From assembly GCA_045539955.1 (NCBI GenBank), contig JAZQGI010000011.1, positions 16,832 to 80,831 on the forward strand: DNA of 64,000 nt, written 5' to 3'. Position numbers and translations under genes: made by a program. This document shows positions 1-18,487 of the stretch, piece by piece; the stretch's first letter is position 1, and every line of letters starts with the position of its first letter. The notes below the pieces were generated by a model. The model was not told the DNA's origin and did not search any database. It saw only the letters and a list, made by a program, of their open reading frames with translations. The DNA comes from Acutalibacteraceae bacterium. GTDB taxonomy: Bacteria; Bacillota; Clostridia; Oscillospirales; Acutalibacteraceae.

Positions 1-165
1 TGCAAGACCCTGAAAATCTACATCTGGAATAATTACAGTTTTTGCACCCACAAATTTTGTTGCAAGCGCATTGTCACTGAAAAATCCTGTGGCAGATTTC
101 TGGGAAAACATTTTATCAAGTTCGGTTGAGTATTTTAAAGCATTTTCAATAGAGTTAATAGACAT
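1..165 (-). CDS. phage major-capsid-like protein, N-terminal 55 codons only (gene runs off the left edge)
   Basis: Not in the ORF track. ATG at 165-163 with AAGGAG 7 nt upstream (minus sense), open to position 1. Translates MSINSIENALKYSTELDKMFSQKSATGFFSDNALATKFVGAKTVIIPDVDFQGLA. Sits directly after a scaffold-like gene in a terS-terL-scaffold block. The capsid call rests on gene order and remembered N-terminal resemblance only. Confidence 0.4.
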   Translation of the reverse strand, partial: MSINSIENALKYSTELDKMFSQKSATGFFSDNALATKFVGAKTVIIPDVDFQGLA

Positions 166-186
166 ATTTTTTCTCCTTAAATTTAA

Positions 187-831
187 TTATTTTTGCCATA
201 GTCCGCGAAGAAACTCTATGGCCTCGGGGTTTTCTGTACCTCTTTTATTAAGTAATGAACCCATAGCAGATTGCTCTGCTCTGTGTTGATTTTTAACACT
301 TTGCCTTGCGGCAAGCTGTTGCTTGTGAAGATATCTTAAGTATTCATCAAGCAGTAGGGTACCCTTTAATTTTGCGGATTCGACAACACTTTCAGGCAAA
401 TCCTCCAAAGACTTAATTTCGGGGAAATCTTCCAAAAGCTCTGCAAAGCCGTTGGTTTCAGTTTCTTTGCCGTTTTCGAGCTGCAAAATATGCTCTGCAA
501 ATTGACGGTCACCGCCGCATTTTTCAAGAATTTCGCTTTCTCTTAAAGCACACCTCTGGCCTTTGAGCGCTTCGATAAATTCTCTGACACTCTTACCCTC
601 AGCCTTTGCTAAGCTTTTAAGCTCATCATAATCCTTTGAAATCACATCAAATTTCATACCCTTTTGTGCCAATTCCTGAGCCTTCTGTAAATCCAAATTT
701 AAAACCTGCTTATTAAACTTAACAGGAACAATTAATTCGGATTGTTCGTTTGTTTCGGTTTCCAAGCCTTCATCAGTCATATTTTCATTTTTGCTTTGGT
801 TGGCATCATTTAAAACAATATTTTCTGACAT
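187..831 (-). CDS. phage scaffolding-like protein (acidic, coiled-coil)
   Basis: 214-aa ORF, highly acidic and helical (E/K/L/Q rich), located between terL and the capsid-like gene. No enzymatic motifs seen. Confidence 0.45.
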   Translation of the reverse strand: MSENIVLNDANQSKNENMTDEGLETETNEQSELIVPVKFNKQVLNLDLQKAQELAQKGMKFDVISKDYDELKSLAKAEGKSVREFIEALKGQRCALRESEILEKCGGDRQFAEHILQLENGKETETNGFAELLEDFPEIKSLEDLPESVVESAKLKGTLLLDEYLRYLHKQQLAARQSVKNQHRAEQSAMGSLLNKRGTENPEAIEFLRGLWQK

Positions 832-851
832 ACTTTTTCTCCATTCTTATT

Positions 852-1034
852 TTACTGTTGTTCGCTTCCGTCATAATTTAGGAAGTTTTGGTATTCTTTA
901 GTTATAGTCTGCAAGTCCTGTTGGAGCTTTGCCGAAGATTTTTTTGCCTTAATCGGCGGCTCTTTTCTGACACCCGCAAAAAAACCGATTAAAAAGACAA
1001 ACAATGCAGTAAATATTACTGTTAAAACTGTCAT
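852..1034 (-). CDS. small single-pass membrane protein (phage block)
   Basis: 60-aa ORF with an N-terminal hydrophobic helix (VLTVIFTALFVFLIGFFAGV). Its start overlaps the terL stop (ATGA-type overlap at 1031-1034), suggesting coupling. Confidence 0.4.
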   Translation of the reverse strand: MTVLTVIFTALFVFLIGFFAGVRKEPPIKAKKSSAKLQQDLQTITKEYQNFLNYDGSEQQ

Positions 1035-2338
1035 AAGTCCCAGCCTCCGTTAAAATCTCTTTTATCAATTCCGCTTACATATCCTTGACTTCGCTTCTGC
1101 TTTTGCGGTTTGAAATATTTTACATCCTCAAAAGCATACCTCAGCGCATCACAAAGGTGGTTTTCACTGTCCTTTGGCATTTTAAGTCCGTTTTCGGTTC
1201 GCTTATCATCATAAACATAAGATGATAGTTCTCTTATCATATTTACACAAGCAGGACTGACTGTAATCTGGTATTCACAAATTGCCGAAATTCCGTTAAG
1301 GATACTGTCCCGCCCTTTAACCGACGGAGTAATTCTTCCAATTCCCAAACGGCGTAAATCGTCATTTGACTTTGGCTCTGCACAGTCTGCGCGAATGCGT
1401 TCTTTACTAAAGCCCATTTCTTTAATTTTTTGGGCAATATCGCAGTTTAGCATACGCGTCTTATAAAATTCACTGTAAATATATATCTGTTTAAGTATGG
1501 GGTTAGCTTTAAAAGCAACAAATGCAGTCGGGTCGTTTGTATAACCGTAGTCAAGCCCGAAAAAGCTTTTCCACATATACTCCTCTTCTCTTGGTATAGA
1601 GATTTTCCCTACCGACCAATTTTCAAACACCAGTCCCTCGGAAATACCCCAATTCCCAAGACCTGCAACTTCATACTTTCTCCTGTTTGTTTTTTTCATT
1701 CTTTCAAAAACAAGCCTATCCGTTTCATCAAGAAATTCATTACAAAGATAATTCGTTGAAAATGTTTCAACATCAGGAGAAGCAGAATCAAAAAAGCGTT
1801 TTTTCAGCCAGTGCGTGTCACTCCACGGGTTAAATGTAAGAGTGGTCTGCTTATATAAAGGGGCTGGTACCAATCCCCTTGGCACAGAAAGATCAAGCTT
1901 ATCAAAATCGGCTTCATTAGCAATTTCAAAGGCTTCCTCAATCCATACATAATTGAGATACCCTCTTGAAACCGTGGTTGAAGCTAATTTCAAAACATCG
2001 TCAAAGCCACGAAAAATTATTTTTTGTCCCGTCGGCTTGTAAACCATTTCTAAGGGTGAGACGGTATTACTCCAATATTTTGAAACGCCAAGTCTTTCCT
2101 GTGCCCATTTAAGCTGTGCAAAAGTGCTGTCACGATGGGTGTTCATTACCTGACGCACAACTAACAGATTACTCTCCTTTTCTTTCATAAGCCTGAAAAT
2201 AAAGTTTAGTGCCGTAGTGGCTGATTTTTTGGAACCCTTACCGCCTTTAAGTACACGGTAACGCTTTTTACAATTCCAAAATTTTTCATAACCTTGTCCG
2301 ACAATTGCCGAAATTTTAATCTCGGATGTCGTCAACAA
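1031..2338 (-). CDS. phage terminase large subunit (PBSX/XtmB-like)
   Basis: 435-aa ORF. Walker-A-like KGGKGSKKS near the N-terminus and an acidic nuclease half. Length and layout are typical of Firmicute phage TerL. Overlaps the upstream terS-like ORF. Confidence 0.8.
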   Translation of the reverse strand: MLTTSEIKISAIVGQGYEKFWNCKKRYRVLKGGKGSKKSATTALNFIFRLMKEKESNLLVVRQVMNTHRDSTFAQLKWAQERLGVSKYWSNTVSPLEMVYKPTGQKIIFRGFDDVLKLASTTVSRGYLNYVWIEEAFEIANEADFDKLDLSVPRGLVPAPLYKQTTLTFNPWSDTHWLKKRFFDSASPDVETFSTNYLCNEFLDETDRLVFERMKKTNRRKYEVAGLGNWGISEGLVFENWSVGKISIPREEEYMWKSFFGLDYGYTNDPTAFVAFKANPILKQIYIYSEFYKTRMLNCDIAQKIKEMGFSKERIRADCAEPKSNDDLRRLGIGRITPSVKGRDSILNGISAICEYQITVSPACVNMIRELSSYVYDDKRTENGLKMPKDSENHLCDALRYAFEDVKYFKPQKQKRSQGYVSGIDKRDFNGGWDL

Positions 2339-2585
2339 TCATCACCGCCTTTAAGCCCTCTGGCTTTTGCTCGGTTTTTTCACTTGCGATTGAACGCAGC
2401 TCCTTTATAGCTGAAAGGTCCCCTGAAACCGCCTTTTTATAAAGAGCAATCATAACAGCTGTTTTTCTTGTGGGGTTTTTAACAGTAAAACCCTCTTCTC
2501 TTAAAGAGAGAGTCTCTTCCATAGACAGCTTTTCATTAAGTATCGTTTTCAAGGTTTTATAAAGTAGCTTGTCGTTCTCACGCAT
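2316..2585 (-). CDS. terminase small-subunit-like protein (short, possibly only the C-terminal part)
   Basis: 89-aa ORF overlapping the terL start. The segment ALYKKAVSGDLSAIKELRSI resembles the conserved C-terminal helix of small terminases. No obvious N-terminal HTH. GGAGG SD upstream. Confidence 0.4.
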   Translation of the reverse strand: MRENDKLLYKTLKTILNEKLSMEETLSLREEGFTVKNPTRKTAVMIALYKKAVSGDLSAIKELRSIASEKTEQKPEGLKAVMIVDDIRD

Positions 2586-5394: not shown

Positions 5395-5976
5395 GTGAAA
5401 ATTGTGAAAAATCATTTTTATGCTATGATGTCGCGTATGAAAAACATATACCGTTGGGGACTAATGAGAAATACACGCAAGGAAAATTTAAGCGAGCATT
5501 CACTGGAGGTTGCCTTTGTTGCTCACGCGTTAGCAATAATTAATAACACCCGTCTTGGCGGTAGTATTGACCCTAATGCAGTTGCTGTTGCGGCTATGTA
5601 TCACGACACAACCGAAATTATTACAGGCGATATGCCAACCCCCATAAAATATTATAACTGCGATATTAAAAATGTTTATAAGGATATTGAAAAAATCGCA
5701 GAAAACCGCCTTTTAGAAAAACTACCGCAAGATTTCAAGGCTCAGTTTTCAAAGATTTATAACCCTGACCAAGATATCGCAAAGCTTGTAAAAGCGGCGG
5801 ATAAAATCTCTGCGCTCATTAAATGTATTGAAGAAGCAAATATGGGCAACCGTGAGTTTGCAGTGGCTGAAAAAAGCACACGAAAAGCTATTGATGACCT
5901 TAACTGCCCAGAAGCAAATATCTTTATGAAAGAATTTATTGAAAGCTTTTATCTATCCCTTGATGAACTTAACTAA
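5395..5976 (+). CDS. yfbR: HD-domain 5'-deoxynucleotidase (YfbR-like)
   Basis: RWGLMRNTRKENLSEHSLEVAFVAHALA ... YHDTTEIITGDMPTP aligns with the E. coli YfbR HD motif as remembered. The start could be the GTG at 5395 or 5404. Confidence 0.75.
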   Translation: MKIVKNHFYAMMSRMKNIYRWGLMRNTRKENLSEHSLEVAFVAHALAIINNTRLGGSIDPNAVAVAAMYHDTTEIITGDMPTPIKYYNCDIKNVYKDIEKIAENRLLEKLPQDFKAQFSKIYNPDQDIAKLVKAADKISALIKCIEEANMGNREFAVAEKSTRKAIDDLNCPEANIFMKEFIESFYLSLDELN

Positions 5977-9755: not shown

Positions 9756-10102
9756 GGGAGTGTAAAGGTTTCGACAGGGATTTAGAAGTATGGGAAGCGA
9801 GCAGCGGTGCGGAACCGCTATAAAATCCGCATAAAAAATTAACTAACAACAATAAAGTTGCTTTAGCTGCCTAATTAGGCGGCTCGTCGAACCTTAGAGT
9901 ACCACGGCTAAGGCAAGGCGTCGATTTAGTGGTGAACGTGAACAGCGGGTTGTTCCCCCTGCTGTCAGGAAATTAGGAACTACCAAGCAAAACAGTCGGT
10001 CGCTTGACGGTTTTGTAAGGGAATGTAAATTTGCGACTGCGCTCGGAGAGACCTATATGGAAAAATTTTTGGACAGGAGTTCGATTCTCCTCACTTCCAC
10101 CA
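9756..10102 (+). ncRNA. ssrA: tmRNA (ssrA)
   Basis: 5' GGGAGUG pairs with 3' CACUUCC before ACCA. A T-arm GGAGTTCGATTCTCC is present. The internal tag reading frame ends ...NNNKVALAA-TAA (gtt gct tta gct gcc taa at about 9858-9875). Located immediately downstream of smpB. Confidence 0.9.
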
Positions 10103-10103
10103 G
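10087..10103 (+). repeat. att direct repeat, copy 1 (3' end of ssrA): CTCCTCACTTCCACCAG
   Basis: Identical 17-mer found again at 16358-16374 on the same strand. Confidence 0.8.
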
Positions 10104-10107
10104 AAAA

Positions 10108-10142
10108 AGACCTATGCTTTGTATCAAAGCATAGGTCTTTTT
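10108..10142 (+). terminator. intrinsic terminator of ssrA
   Basis: Stem AGACCTATGCTTT/AAAGCATAGGTCT, loop GTATC, then T5. Confidence 0.8.
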
Positions 10143-10169
10143 CAACGAAATAAATCCCTTGCGAGATTT

Positions 10170-10324
10170 GTGAAATACGCTTCGCGTGTGAAATATTGCT
10201 TTGCAATGTGAAATGCCTGTTGGCATGAGAGGATTTATTTTATTTCACTTGATGCGTCAGCATCAAATTTCACGATTTGCACAGTTAATTATTTCACATT
10301 TTGCTTAACAGCAAAATATTTCAC
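10170..10324. repeat. array of seven GTGAAAT heptamers (3 forward, 4 inverted) interleaved with short palindromes
   Basis: GTGAAAT at 10170, 10188 and 10208. ATTTCAC at 10242, 10267, 10291 and 10318. Most spacers are palindromic (ACGCttcGCGT, ATTGCtttGCAAT, TTGATGCgtcaGCATCAA, ATTTTGCttaacaGCAAAAT). Confidence 0.7.
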
Positions 10325-10371
10325 TTTTCAAATTAGGGGCCAACTAAACGATTTAGAATTAAGTGCCGAAG

Positions 10372-10405
10372 TTCCACCAAAAAAGACTTGCTTTTCAAGT
10401 CTTTT
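10372..10405 (+). repeat. second, degenerate copy of the tmRNA 3' end plus a hairpin terminator
   Basis: TTCCACCA-AAAAAGAC matches ssrA TTCCACCAGAAAAAGAC with a 1-nt gap. Followed by hairpin GACTTG-CTTTT-CAAGTC and T4, the same layout as the genuine ssrA end. Confidence 0.45.
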
Positions 10406-10554
10406 CTTGTATTTGTGCCTAAAGGACACAACATCCTTTTTCGCATATCAAAAACATCAGTTACCTTTTAAGGTAACATCGTTGAGTTATATTACACACC
10501 TCACATCACAAGCAATTTATATTATTGCACACAAATTTTGCACGAACAATATAA

Positions 10555-10582
10555 CAAAAAGCAGGCTTATTTAAACCTGCTT
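10555..10582 (-). terminator. intrinsic terminator at the tmRNA-proximal end of the island operon
   Basis: Minus sense: AAGCAGG-tttaaataag-CCTGCTT followed by TTTTTG. Confidence 0.6.
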
Positions 10583-10789
10583 CACTAGTTGCATTGTTTT
10601 CTTTTTGGCTTCCTGCTGCGTCTTGCTCTCCTCTACCAAAGGTATTGCTCTCTTGGCTACTTCTTCCTTCTTGTTCGACTCTATACTGCCGAAAAGAAGC
10701 ATTATTTCGTCTATTATCGAGTCTGAGATATTCTTCTCCGTACATTTTTTCAATAGTTTCGTACGGTAATGGCTTTCGCTGATACTCAT
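10571..10789 (-). CDS. hypothetical 72-aa helical, charged protein (alternative frame)
   Basis: MSISESHYRTKLLKKCTEKNISDSIIDEIMLLFGS... Stop TAA lies in the loop of the terminator hairpin at 10559-10582, the placement expected for a genuine 3' end. Confidence 0.35.
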   Translation of the reverse strand: MSISESHYRTKLLKKCTEKNISDSIIDEIMLLFGSIESNKKEEVAKRAIPLVEESKTQQEAKKKTMQLVKQV

Positions 10790-10884
10790 TCTTTATTATC
10801 CTTTCTTGTATCATTGATATATCGGAACTATCTCCCTTTACAATTCTCACAATCTTTGTGATTTCAGGGTTTTCAATAGTTCCC

Positions 10885-11625
10885 TTAACATACATAATTA
10901 TAAGCCTCATCACCATTACGCATTGTAATTTGAGTCCTTTTGAATATACAACATTGTTTTTTCTCTGAAAATCGTTCATTAAATTCTGGGATATGTGATT
11001 TATACCATGTATTAAACTCATTAACATTCAATGTACTACCGTTTAAAAAAACATATTGACACAACGATATCCCATTTAGATAATCATATTCATATGTCAA
11101 TAATGTTTTTCTTCCAAAAAAATCAACAAAATATTTTGGAAGCCAATTATTTGGTATAATAATAAAAGGTTTTGAACTTTGTCTGATAGAATCATCACAA
11201 AAAACAAAATCTTCTAAAAGATTTCCTGAACACATACCAATTTTCTCTAGAACGTTATCAAAAATCGCAGTTTCTAAATACCCCTCGGCGGTCCCATCAC
11301 AAAAAACAACTTCTAACGGTGGGTATTGCCCAATTTTAAAACTTTGAACATAGTGATATGGATTATCAAAATGACTATCTTTTATTTTTTCTTCATTGCG
11401 AATAGCAAATACATTTCCCGAAATAATTACACCCAACCGATAATAACTAACAATTATTTTATAACGATTATCTATTTTCAAATGTTTAAAAAATTTTACA
11501 ACTTCCGTTATATCGGCATATATTATGTTGTTATCTTTCACACGGCTAATGAATTTTCCGATAGTTTCATTTCTAAAATTATTTAATTTTTCTTTTAATA
11601 GACTAATATCATATTGCAAATCCAT
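10885..11625 (-). CDS. hypothetical 246-aa protein, AT-rich (candidate partner or immunity protein of the giant ORF)
   Basis: ATG 11625 with AAGGGTGA SD. No recognisable motif, no TM segment and no signal peptide. About 95 nt downstream of the giant ORF on the same strand. Confidence 0.55.
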   Translation of the reverse strand: MDLQYDISLLKEKLNNFRNETIGKFISRVKDNNIIYADITEVVKFFKHLKIDNRYKIIVSYYRLGVIISGNVFAIRNEEKIKDSHFDNPYHYVQSFKIGQYPPLEVVFCDGTAEGYLETAIFDNVLEKIGMCSGNLLEDFVFCDDSIRQSSKPFIIIPNNWLPKYFVDFFGRKTLLTYEYDYLNGISLCQYVFLNGSTLNVNEFNTWYKSHIPEFNERFSEKKQCCIFKRTQITMRNGDEAYNYVC

Positions 11626-11719
11626 AATTGTCACCCTTATTTTAAAAACTTACAGTGCCATTTTAAAAAATAATTATAACATTAATAACATCAATTTGCA
11701 AGTTTTCATACATAATAAC

Positions 11720-14700
11720 TTATGTATAATCATTATTGACAGTAGGCTCATTATTGAGTATAATGTCATTAGAAGATGAACCATCAAGGGCCCGAGAGCC
11801 CACCACGGCTATTATTTTAGCTGAAGATGGAACATCTTCTTTTATTTTACCAACATTATAAACTGTAGCAAATGTTCCATTGTGACCAATCGAGAAGCGA
11901 ATTTTATAATATTGACCATCAAAATCTTCAAAGTAAGCCGTACGGTACTCGAAACCGTCTTTAGCAAAATCGTGATTCTTCTCATCGTTGGTCAACGGCT
12001 TATTTTCTTTTAATGCCGTTTCAGCAATTTCCGTTTTATTAACCTTCTTACCATTTACGGTATCTTCCCAAATATCCTCTGCTGTCCCGTTTCCGACCGC
12101 TTTATCGGCTTTTTCAAGCGCCTTTTCGTCCGATATCACTTCATACGAAAAATCACCAAGCAACACCTTTTCTTCCATACCCTCAAGCATTTCATCGGTC
12201 AAGGTGCCCGTTTCAATTATGGTGCGGGTAAATCTTTTAGTAGGCTTATCTTCGGCAACAGCCCGCGGTGTAGCAATAGGCGCTTTAGCATTTTCACCTT
12301 GCGGTAACATACCGTAGGTTTCGTTTGCTTCACCCCAAAGCCTGTCGGTTTCTTCAAGGTATTCTTCTTTTGTTATCTCGCCGCTCTCATACTTTTTAAG
12401 GTTGTCCCTCATTTGCTGAGCAGGGGAGCCAAGAGAGAACGAACCCTCACCGTTTTCTTCTGAATCGGAATAATCTTGAGTTTCATTGGATATATTATTC
12501 TTGACATCATCCTCTTCATCGAGTATAATGTCATTGGAAGAGATTTCGTTGATACTGCCCTCGTATTGGACTTGGGGAGTGCCTTGCGGAATCTCTTCCG
12601 TTTTGTTTTCAATTATTCTTCCTTCGTTTTTTGCGGTCAAAATATATTTTTCAATATTCTTTTTACCATAAGCAGAAGTAACAATGTGTGCATCAAGCAT
12701 TTTATTACCATTCAACGTAACGGTATTAATAGCAATAATAGAAAGAATAGAATTGCCTTTTTTATCAACAGTTTGTAATGCAAGTTCTATTTTCCCATCT
12801 TTTTTAGATTTCATAATATGCTTTGGATTTTTAAAAGACTCTAATGCCTCTTGAAGTCCCTCTACACCAAGGTTATGATAATTTATTCCTTGGCCACGAT
12901 ATTTTCCCGTTTCTTTACTATGCATAGATAAATAGGCATCTCGGTAATTCATTGCTATAGGATAGTTGTACAGAACTATATTATTTTTTTGAAGTAAATT
13001 TATAAACTCAGTGGAAAATTCACCAACATATACATATCGCTGTTCAAAAGATTCAGAAGTTTCGTAGGCATCTTTTAACTGCTCATTCAAAGTTTCCGCA
13101 TTTGGATTAAAAGCATTAGCACCTGTTTTTCTTAAGCAATACATAACCCCACCGCTATTTTTAGCGGCTTTTTTTGTATCCCTTGAATCAAACACTCTGC
13201 CGAGTCGCTTTTCGATATACTCAAGGTCCTCTACAAGTCTTTTGTTTTGGTTTACACCCTTAAAACTTGCAATAAGGTCCTTTATCCAGTCAATAATCTT
13301 TTCGAACCATTTGCGGTCGGTTTCAGTAAGGCTTTCAAATTCCGAAAGCGTATCTTCGATATCATAAATGGCTTCGAGATTACCGTCCGAAAGATGCTGC
13401 GCCACATTTCTGCGGTTACCCTTAAATAATATTTCGGAAATAAAGTCAGCAACCATTTCGTGCTGTGCTGATTCTAAAGTAAATCCCTTTTTAAATTTTT
13501 CGGTAAAACTGCCGTTCTGCACATCATCAATATAAAGCTGTGCCAAAGCCTGTAACGCTTCTTCACGAGTTCCCTTAAATTCAGTTTTGTATTTTGCTTT
13601 AAGCTGTGCTCTCGCATACCCTTCAAAAGAAGAACTGTTATGGAAAAGATAATTTTTAAGACCTTGATAAGCGCCTCTGCTTTCAAGCCTGTGGATACAT
13701 TCGTGCTTAAATAATTGGAAATATGATTCAACAGCCGAATTGTCTTTTGATAAATACATTGTGTTGCTCTCACGCATATAAACGCCATTTTTACCCGAAA
13801 GCACCTTGGCGTCCTTACTAACAAACACAACCTTCATACCGCTGTCGAGCTTTTTAGCAACATCAAGAATATGCCTTTGCTTAGCGTTTTTCATTTCCCC
13901 GAACATAGCCTCGTTATATTCTTCAGCCGTCGGCTCACGATGTATCTCTTGGTCACTCGGCTCACTAAGCCCATACTCACCGCTCTCGGATGATGTAGTT
14001 TCATTTTCAGGCATAAAATTAGCAGGCACTTCCGTGTCTGCTTCTGTATTTTTTGATTTAGTTGTAGCGGAATTTACGCCTTGAGACCTGCTTCCTTGAA
14101 CTTTTTGCGAAGTTCTTTCATATACTCCTCGCTGTCCTCGTGCATAAAGGTTTCCAACATTTTCTGATGCTTTGATAAATTTGGGGCTTTGGCCTCGTTC
14201 GACGTCATTTGAGTAGTGCGAGTATCCATCTATAAATCCCTCCATATTTATTATTTTATTAAAGTTTTGGGTTGGTGTATTACCGTAGGCTTTTATTACC
14301 TGCGGCGGAATATATCTGCCCGTTTCAACATAACGATTAAGTGCTCTTCCTAAAGCCTTATTATTAGATAATTCGTTTAAATGTAAATAAACCGAATAAC
14401 CATTTTGCTTCAACAATTCAATTTTCGCAACCAAAGAATTTACTTTATTGCCACCTACTATCGGCCATACTATATTATCACCGTTTTTAATAGATTCAAT
14501 CAATACTTGGTCAATAATGTTTTGACTTTCGCGGTGAACTGCATTAGCACCTAAACCATTATCAAATTCTGGCAATTCCTCTTTTGCCATATCGCTGTCA
14601 ATAACTCTTGAAGAATTCATTTCTGAAAGAGGATTTACAAGAACACTCGACTTGCCCGCAGCGGATAATCCTATAACAATGTCCGCACGATGTTCTTGCT

Positions 14701-16345
14701 TGACATCACCATTATACACCTCTTTGCCGTTTTCGTCAACACCTGAATAGCTTCCATTTTTTAAAAGTTTATCAGCAACTTGTCGGCGTAATTTTTGACG
14801 TTCTGGCGTATTAACAGTATATGTTTCAGGTCTGCTTGCTGCTTCTTCTGCAACCTCTTTTATTTGCGGAATATTTTCTATCTCTTCCACCGAAACATTT
14901 TCATCTTGAAATAAACGGTCGATAATATTTTTTAATTCCGGCGAAGCAACAATTTTTGAGGGTGTATTTATTCTAATGTCAGTTTCTGGTTCCTCTGTTT
15001 TATGAGTGTTATCATCATATGCCCTTCCGCTCTCGGATGATGGAGTTTCATTTCCAGGCATAAAATTAGCAGACTCTGTAAAGTCTGCTTTCATATCATT
15101 ATTAAATTTATTTACAGCTTCTACAACTGCTCCCCAGTCGTTAAACATACCGCCAAAGGTCTGTTGTGCAAATTCAGGGTCAGAAAGTACAAATTGATTT
15201 ATATACGCCACAATTTCACGCATAAAAATCGGGTATGTGCTTACATCTTCAATATCATACTTACCATTAAAGTAATTTTTATTTATCTCTTCTGCTACTT
15301 TTTTATATGCATCAGAAGAATAATCAACTTCATCGCAAAGCACTGCCTCATACTCGCTATATGCAGGATTATTTGTTTTATCTGCTACATGCACTTTTTC
15401 ATGGTCGAAAGTTTGTTTTGCTGGCAAAGACGATTCACTAGATACATATACCGTTCCGTCAGGAGCAGTAAAGGCTTCCGTACGAGTAACCGTAACACCG
15501 TTTGCCGTTCTCTCTATCGGTCCTTGGCAATATATCGCCTTAATACCCGCATTTACAAAAGCAGTGTACACTTTATATCCGTCAGTACCGTTTTCATTAC
15601 CTTCGGTAAAAGTAACACTGCTGTTTTTAGTGTGGTTTATTCGAATTCGTCTCGGTGCTTCTCCCGTGCCTCCTGAAAGAATTTCCGCCTTTCCTCCTTG
15701 GACATATCCATCAATGGTTTCGTTACTTTTTCCCATCTGGCTTTCTCTTCCGGTGTTAATTCCCGTTTCATTGCTTCCGTCCATTCTTCCTTGGTTATAT
15801 ATTCGCTCATCTATATCAACTCCTGTTTCTTGATTATTATTCATTATACCAGCATTACCGACATTTTGCAACCGTTCGGCAATACTTTGCTTTTCCGTTC
15901 TCTGTTGTGGTGTCAACTGAGCATCAGGAGTATTAAGCAACTGACTCTCCGCTTCGGTTAAACCAACTTCCCCACCATATTCCTGTGGCTGTAATTTTGA
16001 ATTTTGAGCCGTGTTAAATGTTGTAGCATTCCGTATAATAGCTTCAGTCTTCTCAAGTGAAGACAATTGAGCGTTCATACCTTCAGCCCAAGCTTCGCTA
16101 TTTTTAATTTCAGTTATAATCTGCTGTGCTTTGGTATTCTTACCAATATCTTCAGCATTAGCGGTTTCAATTTTACCGTTTGTAGCAACTTGTGTTAAAT
16201 AATTTGAAAGCTTTTGCGTGGTTTTAAAATCAACACCGAGGTCTTGCGCACGTTCACCGACTGCGGTTTTTATAACCGCTCCTTTTTGTGCCGAAACATC
16301 AGACATCACTTGAACCGCCAAACCGCCGATTTTTGCAGTAGACAT
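11720..16345 (-). CDS. 1541-aa multi-module 'polyvalent'-type protein: two HExxH zincin-like modules, a Zeta-toxin-like P-loop kinase module and further unassigned modules
   Basis: Single uninterrupted ORF. HEKVH is encoded at 15389-15403 and HECIH at 13691-13705, in two paralogous contexts (G.VY..ES...L...S....F.HE..H). Walker A IVIGLSAAGKSS at 14651-14671 is followed by a Zeta-toxin-like segment (RVIDSD...). Start set to ATG 16345 (MSTAKIGG) rather than the track's TTG at 16477. Confidence 0.8.
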   Translation of the reverse strand: MSTAKIGGLAVQVMSDVSAQKGAVIKTAVGERAQDLGVDFKTTQKLSNYLTQVATNGKIETANAEDIGKNTKAQQIITEIKNSEAWAEGMNAQLSSLEKTEAIIRNATTFNTAQNSKLQPQEYGGEVGLTEAESQLLNTPDAQLTPQQRTEKQSIAERLQNVGNAGIMNNNQETGVDIDERIYNQGRMDGSNETGINTGRESQMGKSNETIDGYVQGGKAEILSGGTGEAPRRIRINHTKNSSVTFTEGNENGTDGYKVYTAFVNAGIKAIYCQGPIERTANGVTVTRTEAFTAPDGTVYVSSESSLPAKQTFDHEKVHVADKTNNPAYSEYEAVLCDEVDYSSDAYKKVAEEINKNYFNGKYDIEDVSTYPIFMREIVAYINQFVLSDPEFAQQTFGGMFNDWGAVVEAVNKFNNDMKADFTESANFMPGNETPSSESGRAYDDNTHKTEEPETDIRINTPSKIVASPELKNIIDRLFQDENVSVEEIENIPQIKEVAEEAASRPETYTVNTPERQKLRRQVADKLLKNGSYSGVDENGKEVYNGDVKQEHRADIVIGLSAAGKSSVLVNPLSEMNSSRVIDSDMAKEELPEFDNGLGANAVHRESQNIIDQVLIESIKNGDNIVWPIVGGNKVNSLVAKIELLKQNGYSVYLHLNELSNNKALGRALNRYVETGRYIPPQVIKAYGNTPTQNFNKIINMEGFIDGYSHYSNDVERGQSPKFIKASENVGNLYARGQRGVYERTSQKVQGSRSQGVNSATTKSKNTEADTEVPANFMPENETTSSESGEYGLSEPSDQEIHREPTAEEYNEAMFGEMKNAKQRHILDVAKKLDSGMKVVFVSKDAKVLSGKNGVYMRESNTMYLSKDNSAVESYFQLFKHECIHRLESRGAYQGLKNYLFHNSSSFEGYARAQLKAKYKTEFKGTREEALQALAQLYIDDVQNGSFTEKFKKGFTLESAQHEMVADFISEILFKGNRRNVAQHLSDGNLEAIYDIEDTLSEFESLTETDRKWFEKIIDWIKDLIASFKGVNQNKRLVEDLEYIEKRLGRVFDSRDTKKAAKNSGGVMYCLRKTGANAFNPNAETLNEQLKDAYETSESFEQRYVYVGEFSTEFINLLQKNNIVLYNYPIAMNYRDAYLSMHSKETGKYRGQGINYHNLGVEGLQEALESFKNPKHIMKSKKDGKIELALQTVDKKGNSILSIIAINTVTLNGNKMLDAHIVTSAYGKKNIEKYILTAKNEGRIIENKTEEIPQGTPQVQYEGSINEISSNDIILDEEDDVKNNISNETQDYSDSEENGEGSFSLGSPAQQMRDNLKKYESGEITKEEYLEETDRLWGEANETYGMLPQGENAKAPIATPRAVAEDKPTKRFTRTIIETGTLTDEMLEGMEEKVLLGDFSYEVISDEKALEKADKAVGNGTAEDIWEDTVNGKKVNKTEIAETALKENKPLTNDEKNHDFAKDGFEYRTAYFEDFDGQYYKIRFSIGHNGTFATVYNVGKIKEDVPSSAKIIAVVGSRALDGSSSNDIILNNEPTVNNDYT

Positions 16346-16357
16346 TTTACCGCTTTG

Positions 16358-16374
16358 CTCCTCACTTCCACCAG
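16358..16374 (+). repeat. att direct repeat, copy 2: CTCCTCACTTCCACCAG
   Basis: Exact 17/17 match to the ssrA 3' end at 10087-10103. Confidence 0.8.
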
Positions 16375-16477
16375 TGGCAAGCTGCCACACCCAATCCGTA
16401 ACAAAGTCGTGTGCTAATCTTAAATTAGCGACTCGACCAAAAGATTCGGATTTGAGTGGTAAGGCTCCACCAAACAA

Positions 16478-16510
16478 AATAAAAACCGCTTAAATAAGCG
16501 GTTTTTATTT
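16478..16510. terminator. bidirectional hairpin terminator
   Basis: AACCGCTTA-aat-TAAGCGGTT flanked by A-rich and T-rich runs. Lies downstream of the lipoprotein gene (minus). Confidence 0.7.
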
Positions 16511-16544
16511 TTTATGCACGAATTGTGCACGAATTATTAAGTTA

Positions 16545-17042
16545 TTACTTTATCTTCACATTTTTAAACACAATCTCAATCACATTTGGTTGGGTCCAAA
16601 TTTTAATCGGCAAGCCGCTTGCACCCAGCTCAAAACGGTAGCTAAAGTCAGCAGTTACACCCTCGATATAAAAAACATCATTTTCTTTTGAAACCTCACC
16701 GTCTGATTTAGACAAAACCTCATAAATTAAATGAGCGGCGGTTTTTTCAAAAGTCTTATTATCGTTTATATATTGCACTCCATTAAATTCTGCGCAAACA
16801 CCGTTCTTTGAAAATAAATACTTTAGTCCCTCAATTTCTGAAGGATACTTAAATTCAATAATTGCTTCTCCGTTTTTTTGAACTTCACAATCACATTCGT
16901 AAGTTTCGTTATAGTATACGATTTCGCACGAAAATGAAATTCCCTTTGTAACAGGCTCAATCTGTGTACTTTTCGCCCCGCAACCTGATAACAAAATCAC
17001 AGCCAACAAAACAGAAAATATTCTTTTCAAGCTATCACCCAT
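16545..17042 (-). CDS. lipoprotein of unknown function
   Basis: Signal peptide with lipobox LLSGC (MGDSLKRIFSVLLAVILLSGCGA). 165 aa. Confidence 0.7.
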   Translation of the reverse strand: MGDSLKRIFSVLLAVILLSGCGAKSTQIEPVTKGISFSCEIVYYNETYECDCEVQKNGEAIIEFKYPSEIEGLKYLFSKNGVCAEFNGVQYINDNKTFEKTAAHLIYEVLSKSDGEVSKENDVFYIEGVTADFSYRFELGASGLPIKIWTQPNVIEIVFKNVKIK

Positions 17043-18487
17043 TAAAGTGCTTCGATTATATCACTTGGCAATAATGCGCTTTCTCCCTTAATTTTCGCAA
17101 CCTTATCAGCCGTAGCGCTATGAACATAAACGGCCGACTTTACCGCTTCTAAAACATCAAGCCCTTGCGCCAAATAAGATACAATAATACCTGCCAATAC
17201 GTCCCCGCTGCCTCCCGTTGCCATTCCGCTGTTGCCACAGGTATTAAAAAATACCTGACCGTCGGGCGAAGATATAAGCGTATTTGTGCCTTTGAGTGCA
17301 ACAAAACAGTTATATTCTCTTGCAAAATCAATAGCAACTTTTATACGGTTTTCTTCAATTTCCTTAATTGAACACCCTAAAAGACGTGACATTTCCGCAG
17401 GGTGCGGAGTTAAAATAATCGGAGCATCAGTTTTCTTTAATACATTTATATTCGAAACTAATGCGTTTATGCCATCGGCATCAACTACTGTGGGTACTTT
17501 GGTTTTTAAAAGAAGTTTTTTCACAAGACGCCGAGTGCTTTTTCTGTTCCCTATTCCGCAACCAATAAGCACCGCTGTTGCCTTTTGTAAAGGCTTCTCT
17601 AAATCAATATTGCCTTTAAAAGTTCCCTTTAAAGTCTGCCTTGCAATAACACAAACCGCCTCAGGCACAGCACAGGTGAGAATTTTGTAAATACCTTTAG
17701 GTATAACACATTTTGCAATACCTACACCACTTCTAAGACACGCTCTTGCTGACAAAATAGCCGCACCAGCCATACCGTAGCTTCCGCAAAACATTACCGC
17801 GGTGCCAAAGGTGCCTTTATGTGAATTCTTTGGGCGTTTTATCGGTTTTGGTTCTTCGATTGTTTGGTATTTATAACAGCTTGGTTTAACACCAATATCT
17901 GCAACTATAACTTCGCCCGTAAAATCAGAAGCAATCGGAAGCATAAAACAAGGCTTTAGTGCAATAAAGGTGACCGTTAAATCAGCATTAATACACCCAC
18001 CCATCACTCGACCGCTGTCACACTCAATCCCAGACGGGATATCTACAGCCACTCTCGTTGCTTTTTGAGAATTTATTTGGTTTATAATTTCAATAACCTC
18101 TGGCGACAATTCCCTGTCAAGACCGATGCCGAAAAGCGCATCTATAATAACATCATATTCACTGTCTATAGTTTCTTTTTTCTCTACACCCGAAAGAGCT
18201 GAATAATAATGTCTTGCAGAATTAGTCGACGGCTCACCCAAAGGGGTTATAACTGTAACATCGGCGCCGCCTTGCGCAAAATTTTGCGCTATAACAAAAC
18301 CGTCGCCGCCATTATTTCCCTTGCCGCAGACAACAGCTATTTTCTTATTATTAATATCTACATTTTCACATATAATTTTATAAGCGGTATCTCCCGCTTT
18401 TTTCATAAGACTCAGAAAAGAAAATGCGCCGCTTTGGACAGCATTTTCTTCGGAAAGCTTTATTAAATCCTTAGTCAATACATCCAT
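17042..18487 (-). CDS. nnr: bifunctional NAD(P)H-hydrate repair enzyme (epimerase / ADP-dependent dehydratase)
   Basis: N-terminal YjeF_N (GKGNNGGDGFV) plus a C-terminal carbohydrate-kinase domain (GGSGDVLAG). Start at ATG 18487 with AGGGTG SD. Confidence 0.85.
   Translation of the reverse strand: MDVLTKDLIKLSEENAVQSGAFSFLSLMKKAGDTAYKIICENVDINNKKIAVVCGKGNNGGDGFVIAQNFAQGGADVTVITPLGEPSTNSARHYYSALSGVEKKETIDSEYDVIIDALFGIGLDRELSPEVIEIINQINSQKATRVAVDIPSGIECDSGRVMGGCINADLTVTFIALKPCFMLPIASDFTGEVIVADIGVKPSCYKYQTIEEPKPIKRPKNSHKGTFGTAVMFCGSYGMAGAAILSARACLRSGVGIAKCVIPKGIYKILTCAVPEAVCVIARQTLKGTFKGNIDLEKPLQKATAVLIGCGIGNRKSTRRLVKKLLLKTKVPTVVDADGINALVSNINVLKKTDAPIILTPHPAEMSRLLGCSIKEIEENRIKVAIDFAREYNCFVALKGTNTLISSPDGQVFFNTCGNSGMATGGSGDVLAGIIVSYLAQGLDVLEAVKSAVYVHSATADKVAKIKGESALLPSDIIEAL

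Follow-up and report, generated by a model that had tools for sequence, protein, structure and literature searches.

A 1541-codon open reading frame (ORF) in a 64,000-nt stretch of the genome of an Acutalibacteraceae bacterium (contig JAZQGI010000011.1, positions 16,832 to 80,831; the whole stretch is referred to below as the window) is very likely the middle part of a phage gene for a polyvalent virion protein, left behind in a decayed prophage at the transfer-messenger RNA (tmRNA) gene ssrA. All coordinates are positions within the window and residue numbers refer to the 1541-amino-acid (aa) form, which runs on the minus strand from an ATG at 16345 to a stop codon at 11720-11722; an in-frame TTG at 16477, upstream of this ATG, would give a longer form of 1585 aa. 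A preliminary description of this DNA had reported the ORF together with HEKVH, HECIH, P-loop, RVIDSD, ANFMP and SSNDIIL motifs, all of which are indeed present in the translation, and had read it as an intact polyvalent protein retained as the sole large cargo of its island. This reading did not hold: the ORF is a fragment cut at both ends with no delivery machinery around it, and it shares the island with a second orphan polyvalent fragment and an unrelated 249-aa gene. The evidence that decides for a relic is the position at which the alignment starts in full-length relatives, together with an empty site in a related genome.

The first residue of the query aligns to residue 553 of the homologue P0002, residue 544 of P0024, residue 546 of P0025 and residue 211 of P0017. 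Because the query thus starts inside its full-length relatives, about 550 upstream residues are missing here, and the N-terminal ~550 aa, which are conserved among these four proteins, are absent from the window. The apparent start ATG corresponds to an internal methionine that is kept in the homologues. Homology on this side stops, at both the protein and the DNA level, at 16354-16357, beside a 17-nt repeat of the tmRNA 3' end, and the junction may include 2 nt of microhomology. On the other side, the second SSNDIIL linker is still covered by homology to the full-length gene of L001, and this homology breaks off at ~11725, 5 nt short of the stop codon. As had been noticed before, only 12 residues come after this second SSNDIIL, and the suspicion that a C-terminal module had been lost beyond it is borne out by the point at which the L001 homology ends.

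The 17-nt duplicate of the tmRNA 3' end that adjoins the start of the ORF has two exact occurrences in the window, compared with 0.03 expected, and forms a direct repeat at both borders of an island. In L005, a related Oscillospiraceae genome whose Nnr protein is 70% identical, the order is nnr, a lipoprotein gene, 163 nt, tmRNA and smpB. The downstream flank of the L005 tmRNA aligns with window positions 16358-16545, and this empty site shows 10104-16374 to be an insertion in ssrA. Within the island neither an integrase ORF nor an integrase family was found (ORF list, PHROGs and NCBIfam), and there are no virion or other phage genes apart from the polyvalent fragments; it also holds a terminator that restores the tmRNA end. 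The second polyvalent fragment lies within a 173-aa ORF (10506-11027), is cut at both ends and matches its homologue at an E value of about 1e-20. Integrase-mediated recombination with a pseudo-site at the 5' breakpoint was considered as well and was dropped: a random deletion ending in the right attachment site (attR) explains the data, and it suffices because attR may at first have contained a longer duplication.

The relatives of the protein point to a phage as its source. The homologues (n = 25) are 900-2640 aa long and carry precomputed PBECR1, PBECR3, ART-PolyVal, MuF_C, LPD23 or LPD38 domains. When four of them were re-checked, PBECR3, ART-PolyVal, MuF_C and LPD38 were reproduced on P0002, P0005 and P0024, and no family was found on P0010. 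Each homologue has only part of the modules of the query, in varying order, and the exact module string of the query was not seen in the other proteins; such a unique string is to be expected in a family that arises by shuffling, and in this copy the accidental truncation has shaped it as well. The full-length relatives belong to ~36-kb temperate phages of Oscillospirales-type Firmicutes, in which the gene lies amid virion genes. In L002 and L004 the order is terminase, scaffold-like gene, major head gene (PHROG 422), portal (P22/SU10-like), a small gene, a virion structural protein, a 344-aa gene, the giant polyvalent gene, collagen/leucine-rich-repeat fibres, amidase, holin, small genes and integrase, and lysis genes adjoin the giant gene in L001 and L024. 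Relatives of module A are encoded on three IMG/VR contigs, and in a tblastn search against cultured phage genomes only the zeta domain of haloarchaeal viruses matched. An IMG/VR scan with the whole protein did not find a close relative, the ORF had no match in PHROGs or NCBIfam, and no near-identical protein was found among 5.8 billion clusters, the exact protein forming a cluster with a single member on one 90.8-kb contig. The earlier assignment to the polyvalent proteins of phages and conjugative elements therefore stands as far as the polyvalent nature and the phage origin are concerned, because the relatives carry polyvalent domains amid virion genes; the conjugative origin falls away.

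Further observations concern the same phage family. Because the 17-mer att core is absent from L001-L004, the phages of L001, L002 and L004 use integration sites other than ssrA; in L001 the prophage that carries P0002 is followed by a tRNA-Leu gene (16484-16567) and an RNase P RNA gene (17878-18050), neighbours that agree with such other sites. L003 holds at its positions 10001-16933 a full-length 2310-aa polyvalent gene (ART-PolyVal, MuF_C, PBECR3) that stands alone in a neighbourhood of sporulation and housekeeping genes, free of phage genes, and may be an orphan. At the left edge of the window, positions 1-2585 (minus strand) contain a second prophage, whole or in part, that belongs to the phage family of the full-length homologues. 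It comes after an 866-aa gene with synteny to L005 and continues beyond the left edge; its ORFs are small-terminase-like (89 aa), Terminase_3-like (435 aa; 78% of residues identical to L002) and scaffold-like, together with the first part of a major head protein.

Features of the ssrA island and of the 1541-codon ORF (positions within the window)
Feature	Start	End	Strand	Remarks
1541-codon ORF	11720	16345	-	very probably what remains of a phage-type polyvalent virion protein gene truncated at both ends
Insertion, 6271 bp	10104	16374		probable decayed prophage remnant; empty site in related genome L005
attL core	10087	10103	+	at 3' end of live tmRNA gene (9756-10102)
attR remainder, 17 nt	16358	16374	+	exact tmRNA 3'-end copy CTCCTCACTTCCACCAG; ancestral ssrA flank to the right
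Helical/Q-rich region, aa 1-215	15701	16345	-	matches residues ~545-735 of full-length P0002, P0024 and P0025
Module A, aa ~210-419	15089	15718	-	HEKVH at 15389-15403; putative zincin-like metallopeptidase
Linker 1, ADFTESANFMPGNETPSSESG	15026	15088	-	ANFMP linker, aa 426
Zeta-toxin-like P-loop kinase module	14042	15010	-	Pfam Zeta_toxin; Walker A at aa 559-566
Linker 2, ADTEVPANFMPENETTSSESG	13979	14041	-	ANFMP linker, aa 775; DNA repeat of linker 1
Module B, aa 790-~1065	13151	13978	-	HECIH at 13691-13705; putative zincin-like metallopeptidase, IrrE/COG2856-like
MuF_C / PBECR-type predicted RNase domain, aa 1154-1244	12614	12886	-	Pfam MuF_C; alignment with P0005
SSNDIIL linker copy 1, aa 1269	12494	12541	-	antisense TTGACA-N17-TATAAT
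Modules D (aa ~1286-1441) and E (aa ~1442-1520)	11786	12490	-	no family
SSNDIIL linker copy 2, aa 1524	11729	11776	-	L001 homology ends at ~11725
Orphan polyvalent-module fragment, 348 nt	10554	10901	-	41% identical to P0017 aa 1420-1536
249-aa gene	10885	11634	-	in low-GC cassette 10898-11654, between two polyvalent fragments

The simplest history that explains these data, and very likely the right one, is the following. In live relatives the intact gene would encode a protein of 2100-2600 aa and stand after the portal and structural genes and before the tail fibre and lysis genes; on the model put forward by Iyer et al. (2017), the full-length protein would be packaged and ejected together with the DNA. 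Its N-terminal ~550 aa would be the conserved part, and the remainder a variable string of effector cassettes, among them a Zeta-type P-loop kinase, an RNase of the PBECR/MuF_C type, zincin-like peptidases with a possible part in processing the chain, and further modules. The prophage would first have integrated normally into the 3' end of ssrA and then suffered deletions. One of these would have reached from codon ~548 upstream, through the early genes, integrase and head genes, into attR, leaving 17 nt of the tmRNA end, while a second break inside the terminal SSNDIIL linker would have cost the gene its C-terminal modules and the phage its tail fibre and lysis genes; the 249-aa gene cassette and another module fragment would now come after this break. 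An internal Met codon would now act as the apparent start. Within the gene, the linkers would be portable joints for cassette exchange between related phage genes, and the Zeta cassette may have been inserted between two joint copies within a common A-linker-B arrangement. The fragment was most likely formed recently, because its reading frame and catalytic motifs are still intact, and it is most likely silent or only weakly expressed.

Profile and structure evidence together give the module order as helical region, HExxH module A, Zeta-like kinase, HExxH module B, MuF_C/PBECR domain and two modules that could not be assigned. For the kinase, a Pfam search with the whole protein gave a match of Zeta_toxin (PF06414) to aa 554-697 with 33.6 bits against a cut-off of 22.3 (E = 3.5e-8). 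Its Walker A motif reads GLSAAGKS, with D585 in RVIDSD as putative catalytic Asp; K565, the Walker A lysine, and D585 are invariant among 15 sequences and align to K46 and D67 of the zeta toxin 1gvn_B, so that the Zeta/PezT-like module proposed earlier is supported. A profile of the same 15 sequences had zeta toxin 1gvn as its best match in the PDB (E 0.01), and single-sequence PDB searches with the module gave no match. Relatives of this module fill at least 3000 representative clusters, many of them internal in proteins of 1000-4500 aa. No epsilon/PezA antitoxin family was found in the adjoining ORFs (Pfam, NCBIfam), and because the antitoxin is absent and the kinase forms one part of a larger protein, the locus does not qualify as a Zeta toxin-antitoxin system.

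The two HExxH modules, with HEKVH at aa 315 and HECIH at aa 881, are plausibly zincin-like, an assignment based on the invariance of their motifs, on the topology predicted for them and on fold matches of low score. In module A the HExVH motif and a downstream Glu in REIxAY are invariant in an alignment of 16 sequences, and in module B FKHExxHxxE and E..VA.F are invariant in an alignment of 8, so that the HExxH motifs are conserved in the homologues of both modules. The AlphaFold2 (AF2) model of module A has a core with a predicted local distance difference test (pLDDT) score of ~90. Compared by Foldseek with PDB folds, none of its matches was significant, the best relevant one being anthrax lethal factor with a probability of 0.35; among BFVD folds it matched large phage proteins with probabilities of 0.97-1.0 and E values of 3e-5 to 1e-3, named as polyvalent-domain, PolyVal-ART or IrrE-N-like proteins. 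The AF2 model of module B (pLDDT 60) has the zincin order of helix, three strands and HExxH helix, and its best PDB folds by Foldseek, none significant and all with low scores, were 6cz6 (a mycobacterial regulator), IrrE/PprI and lethal factor. The metallopeptidase (MPTase) family MPTase-PolyVal (PF18818) matched neither the whole protein nor any member of the A and B alignments at E <= 10, and profiles of the two modules gave chance-level matches only against PDB sequences and Pfam. The zincin-like assignment made before is thus plausible but weak: motifs and topology agree with it, Pfam MPTase-PolyVal gave no match, and the matches to PDB folds have low scores. Iyer et al. (2017, PMC5512222) described many divergent MPTase clades, unified through lethal factor, and a zincin reading fits that picture. 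The second HExxH module had also been called paralogous to the first; the motif is shared, and paralogy itself is only hinted at by an hhalign comparison of A with B (probability 42%, E 2.7e-4), which covers the strand and HExxH helix only.

Towards the C terminus, MuF_C (PF18819) matched in the whole-protein Pfam search with a marginal 28.1 bits against a gathering cut-off of 27.6, and this region of the ORF aligns to the part of P0005 that has a MuF_C match at E 4.9e-9. MuF_C was classed as a PBECR-type ribonuclease (RNase) domain by Iyer et al. (PMC5512222); the domain had been overlooked in the preliminary description, which had left at least two further modules unassigned. Modules D and E are still without a family, and the MuF_C/PBECR domain is now named. 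The order of D and E varies among the homologues, E standing ahead of D in P0010.

The modules are separated by linkers that are conserved as DNA. Positions 13980-14043 and 15027-15090 are 86% identical over 64 nt, with 44 of the first 46 nt identical, and 11729-11776 and 12494-12541 are 79% identical over 48 nt, in agreement with the repeats at DNA level that had been reported. Between phages, the DNA of the ANFMP and SSNDIIL linkers is 90-97% identical, as against 70-78% for the flanking modules. Where residues are identical, the same codon is used at 14/15, 19/20, 12/13 and 11/11 positions of the linkers, whereas the corresponding fraction in modules is 0.53-0.67. The motif AD(F/T)xxxANFMP closes different modules in different proteins. 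In nine proteins, query linker 2 included, the ANFMP linker is followed ~93-110 aa on by an HExxH motif, so that module A or another module X is joined to B by the linker (A-linker-B or X-linker-B). The query departs from this after linker 1, where the Zeta module, linker 2 and module B come next, and since linker 2 repeats the DNA of linker 1, the two copies bracket a Zeta cassette. This pattern is what recombination at the linkers would produce, and the synonymous-codon conservation, together with a DNA identity higher than that of the modules, supports the earlier suggestion that the linkers act as recombination joints. That they are peptidase cleavage sites as well is speculation, and agrees with the processing role that has been proposed for MPTases (Iyer et al., PMC5512222). 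The more far-reaching idea that ANFMP and SSNDIIL are dedicated cassette-exchange joints, which may double as HExxH cleavage sites, and that chromosomal orphan fragments serve as a cassette reservoir, seems to us unlikely. On the plus strand, antisense to the gene, each SSNDIIL linker copy contains TTGACA, 17 nt and TATAAT, a perfect sigma-70 consensus (11736-11764 and 12501-12529), which is also found in the L001 linker at ~5438-5485; this may be a genuine antisense promoter or may simply follow from the conserved codons.

Several points weigh against the reading of the ORF as a phage relic with the history outlined above. A 4.6-kb frame with every catalytic motif intact leaves room for selection for function, and an SD-like (Shine-Dalgarno-like) GAGGAG stands 12 nt upstream of the ATG. 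A consensus scan found no promoter-like site on the minus strand at 16345-16545, and such scans are weak evidence of silence. The fragment may have a joint role with the related prophage at the left edge of the window, the zincin-like modules A and B are without a significant profile or fold match, and packaging and ejection of the full-length protein are inferred from gene position and a published model.

Some of these points would fit a domesticated gene that is still functional, expressed from the internal Met, whose kinase, RNase and peptidase modules would work within the cell, for example in abortive infection, in superinfection exclusion or as an addiction toxin. The intact 1541-codon frame, the retention of both HExxH motifs, the Walker A motif and the catalytic Asp, the GAGGAG ahead of the ATG, and the second lone full-length polyvalent gene amid chromosomal genes in L003 all speak in its favour. 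We nevertheless consider it improbable, as the protein occurs in a single genome and no truncated orthologue is conserved elsewhere, and it has no antitoxin partner and shows no evident promoter, while a strong hairpin at 16471-16516, an intrinsic terminator, lies upstream of it; moreover, both of its ends are arbitrary breakpoints and not domain boundaries picked by selection.

A role as a silent cassette store, in which the fragment and the piece at 10554-10901 supply modules via the linkers to the polyvalent genes of related phages, whether incoming or resident, much like the silent cassettes of polymorphic toxin loci, likewise appears quite improbable. Linkers conserved at synonymous sites both between phages and between copies, the varying module order among homologues and the same-family prophage 8 kb away at window positions 1-2585 would all suit such a store, and Iyer et al. 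(PMC5512222) raise cassette recombination for other polyvalent loci. However, there is no sign of exchange with this particular remnant, decay alone yields remnants without any function, and only a single such locus was seen.

That the junction at the tmRNA repeat is an assembly chimera is highly improbable: the DNA probably comes from a draft genome or one assembled from a metagenome, and the exact protein occurs on a single contig, but the shared sequence of 17 nt is below usual assembly k-mers, the sequence right of the junction is exactly the ancestral ssrA flank as in L005, and the left junction lies at a live tmRNA complete with its own terminator. Scarcely any credence can be given to cargo of a conjugative or mobilisable element, or to an ordinary surface or cell-wall protein, since polyvalent proteins do occur in conjugative elements too (Iyer et al., PMC5512222) but every informative homologue context here is a phage, and no relaxase, type IV secretion system (T4SS), ArdC-N, surface-anchor or signal-peptide family was found (Pfam, PHROGs, NCBIfam).

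As a phage relic, the gene belongs to the known phage-type polyvalent proteins (Iyer, Burroughs, Anand, de Souza and Aravind 2017, PMC5512222) and reveals no new kind of system. Like those, it specifies one long multi-module polypeptide, and its homologues have ART-PolyVal, PBECR1/3 and LPD domains and are encoded amid virion genes. Unlike those, this copy lacks the N-terminal ~550 aa, the C-terminal modules and the surrounding phage, its modules A and B have no Pfam MPTase-PolyVal match, and its kinase is internal in a Firmicute phage protein. The kinase shares with Zeta/PezT (PF06414; PDB 1gvn/3q8x) the Walker A GxxxxGKS and the Asp of (I/V)DxD, yet it is very divergent and sits inside a giant protein without an epsilon/PezA gene. 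The exchange at conserved joints, with orphan fragments nearby, recalls the shuffling of polymorphic toxin loci cited by Iyer et al. (PMC5512222), although the joints here are short inter-module linkers within one phage structural gene.

The case illustrates that an ORF may be long, look intact and have toxin-like domains and yet be a dead fragment. Other cryptic prophages are known at ssrA, for example CP4-57 in Escherichia coli. The present island has the same insertion at the tmRNA 3' end and the same direct repeat, along with an empty site in a relative, but differs from such remnants in its size of 6.3 kb, the lack of an integrase and the deletion of its right edge into attR. Its main value lies in the corrected reading, a phage relic cut at both ends, and in the linker evidence. 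The polyvalent family gains a group of Firmicute (Oscillospirales) temperate phages with a Zeta-type kinase as an internal cassette, and the gene offers a clean example of a cassette inserted between duplicated, DNA-conserved linkers, which bears on how effector arrays diversify.

Other elements of the island and its flank were noted in passing. The 249-aa gene had no family match in PHROGs or NCBIfam, and its sole homologue found (78% identity) lies in L023 at 10001-10741, where it directly adjoins the same lipoprotein and nnr genes and no polyvalent gene intervenes; on the far side of this homologue, a piece of ~70 nt in L023 matches window positions 11685-11766, including a 22-nt exact stretch. 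A Gut-1 RNA (RF01706; 72.9 bits) lies on the plus strand at 10143-10219, just past the tmRNA terminator, and was absent from L001-L004, L023 and L024. The ancestral tmRNA flank at 16375-16516 is about 88% identical to L005 11945-12108, whereas the Nnr proteins are just 70% identical. This flank ends in GCTCCACCA and a terminator, with an AGTTCG-like T-loop remnant in L005, and has the look of a degenerate tmRNA 3' end that was displaced in a far older integration; the island itself contains a diverged copy of it at 10285-10410.

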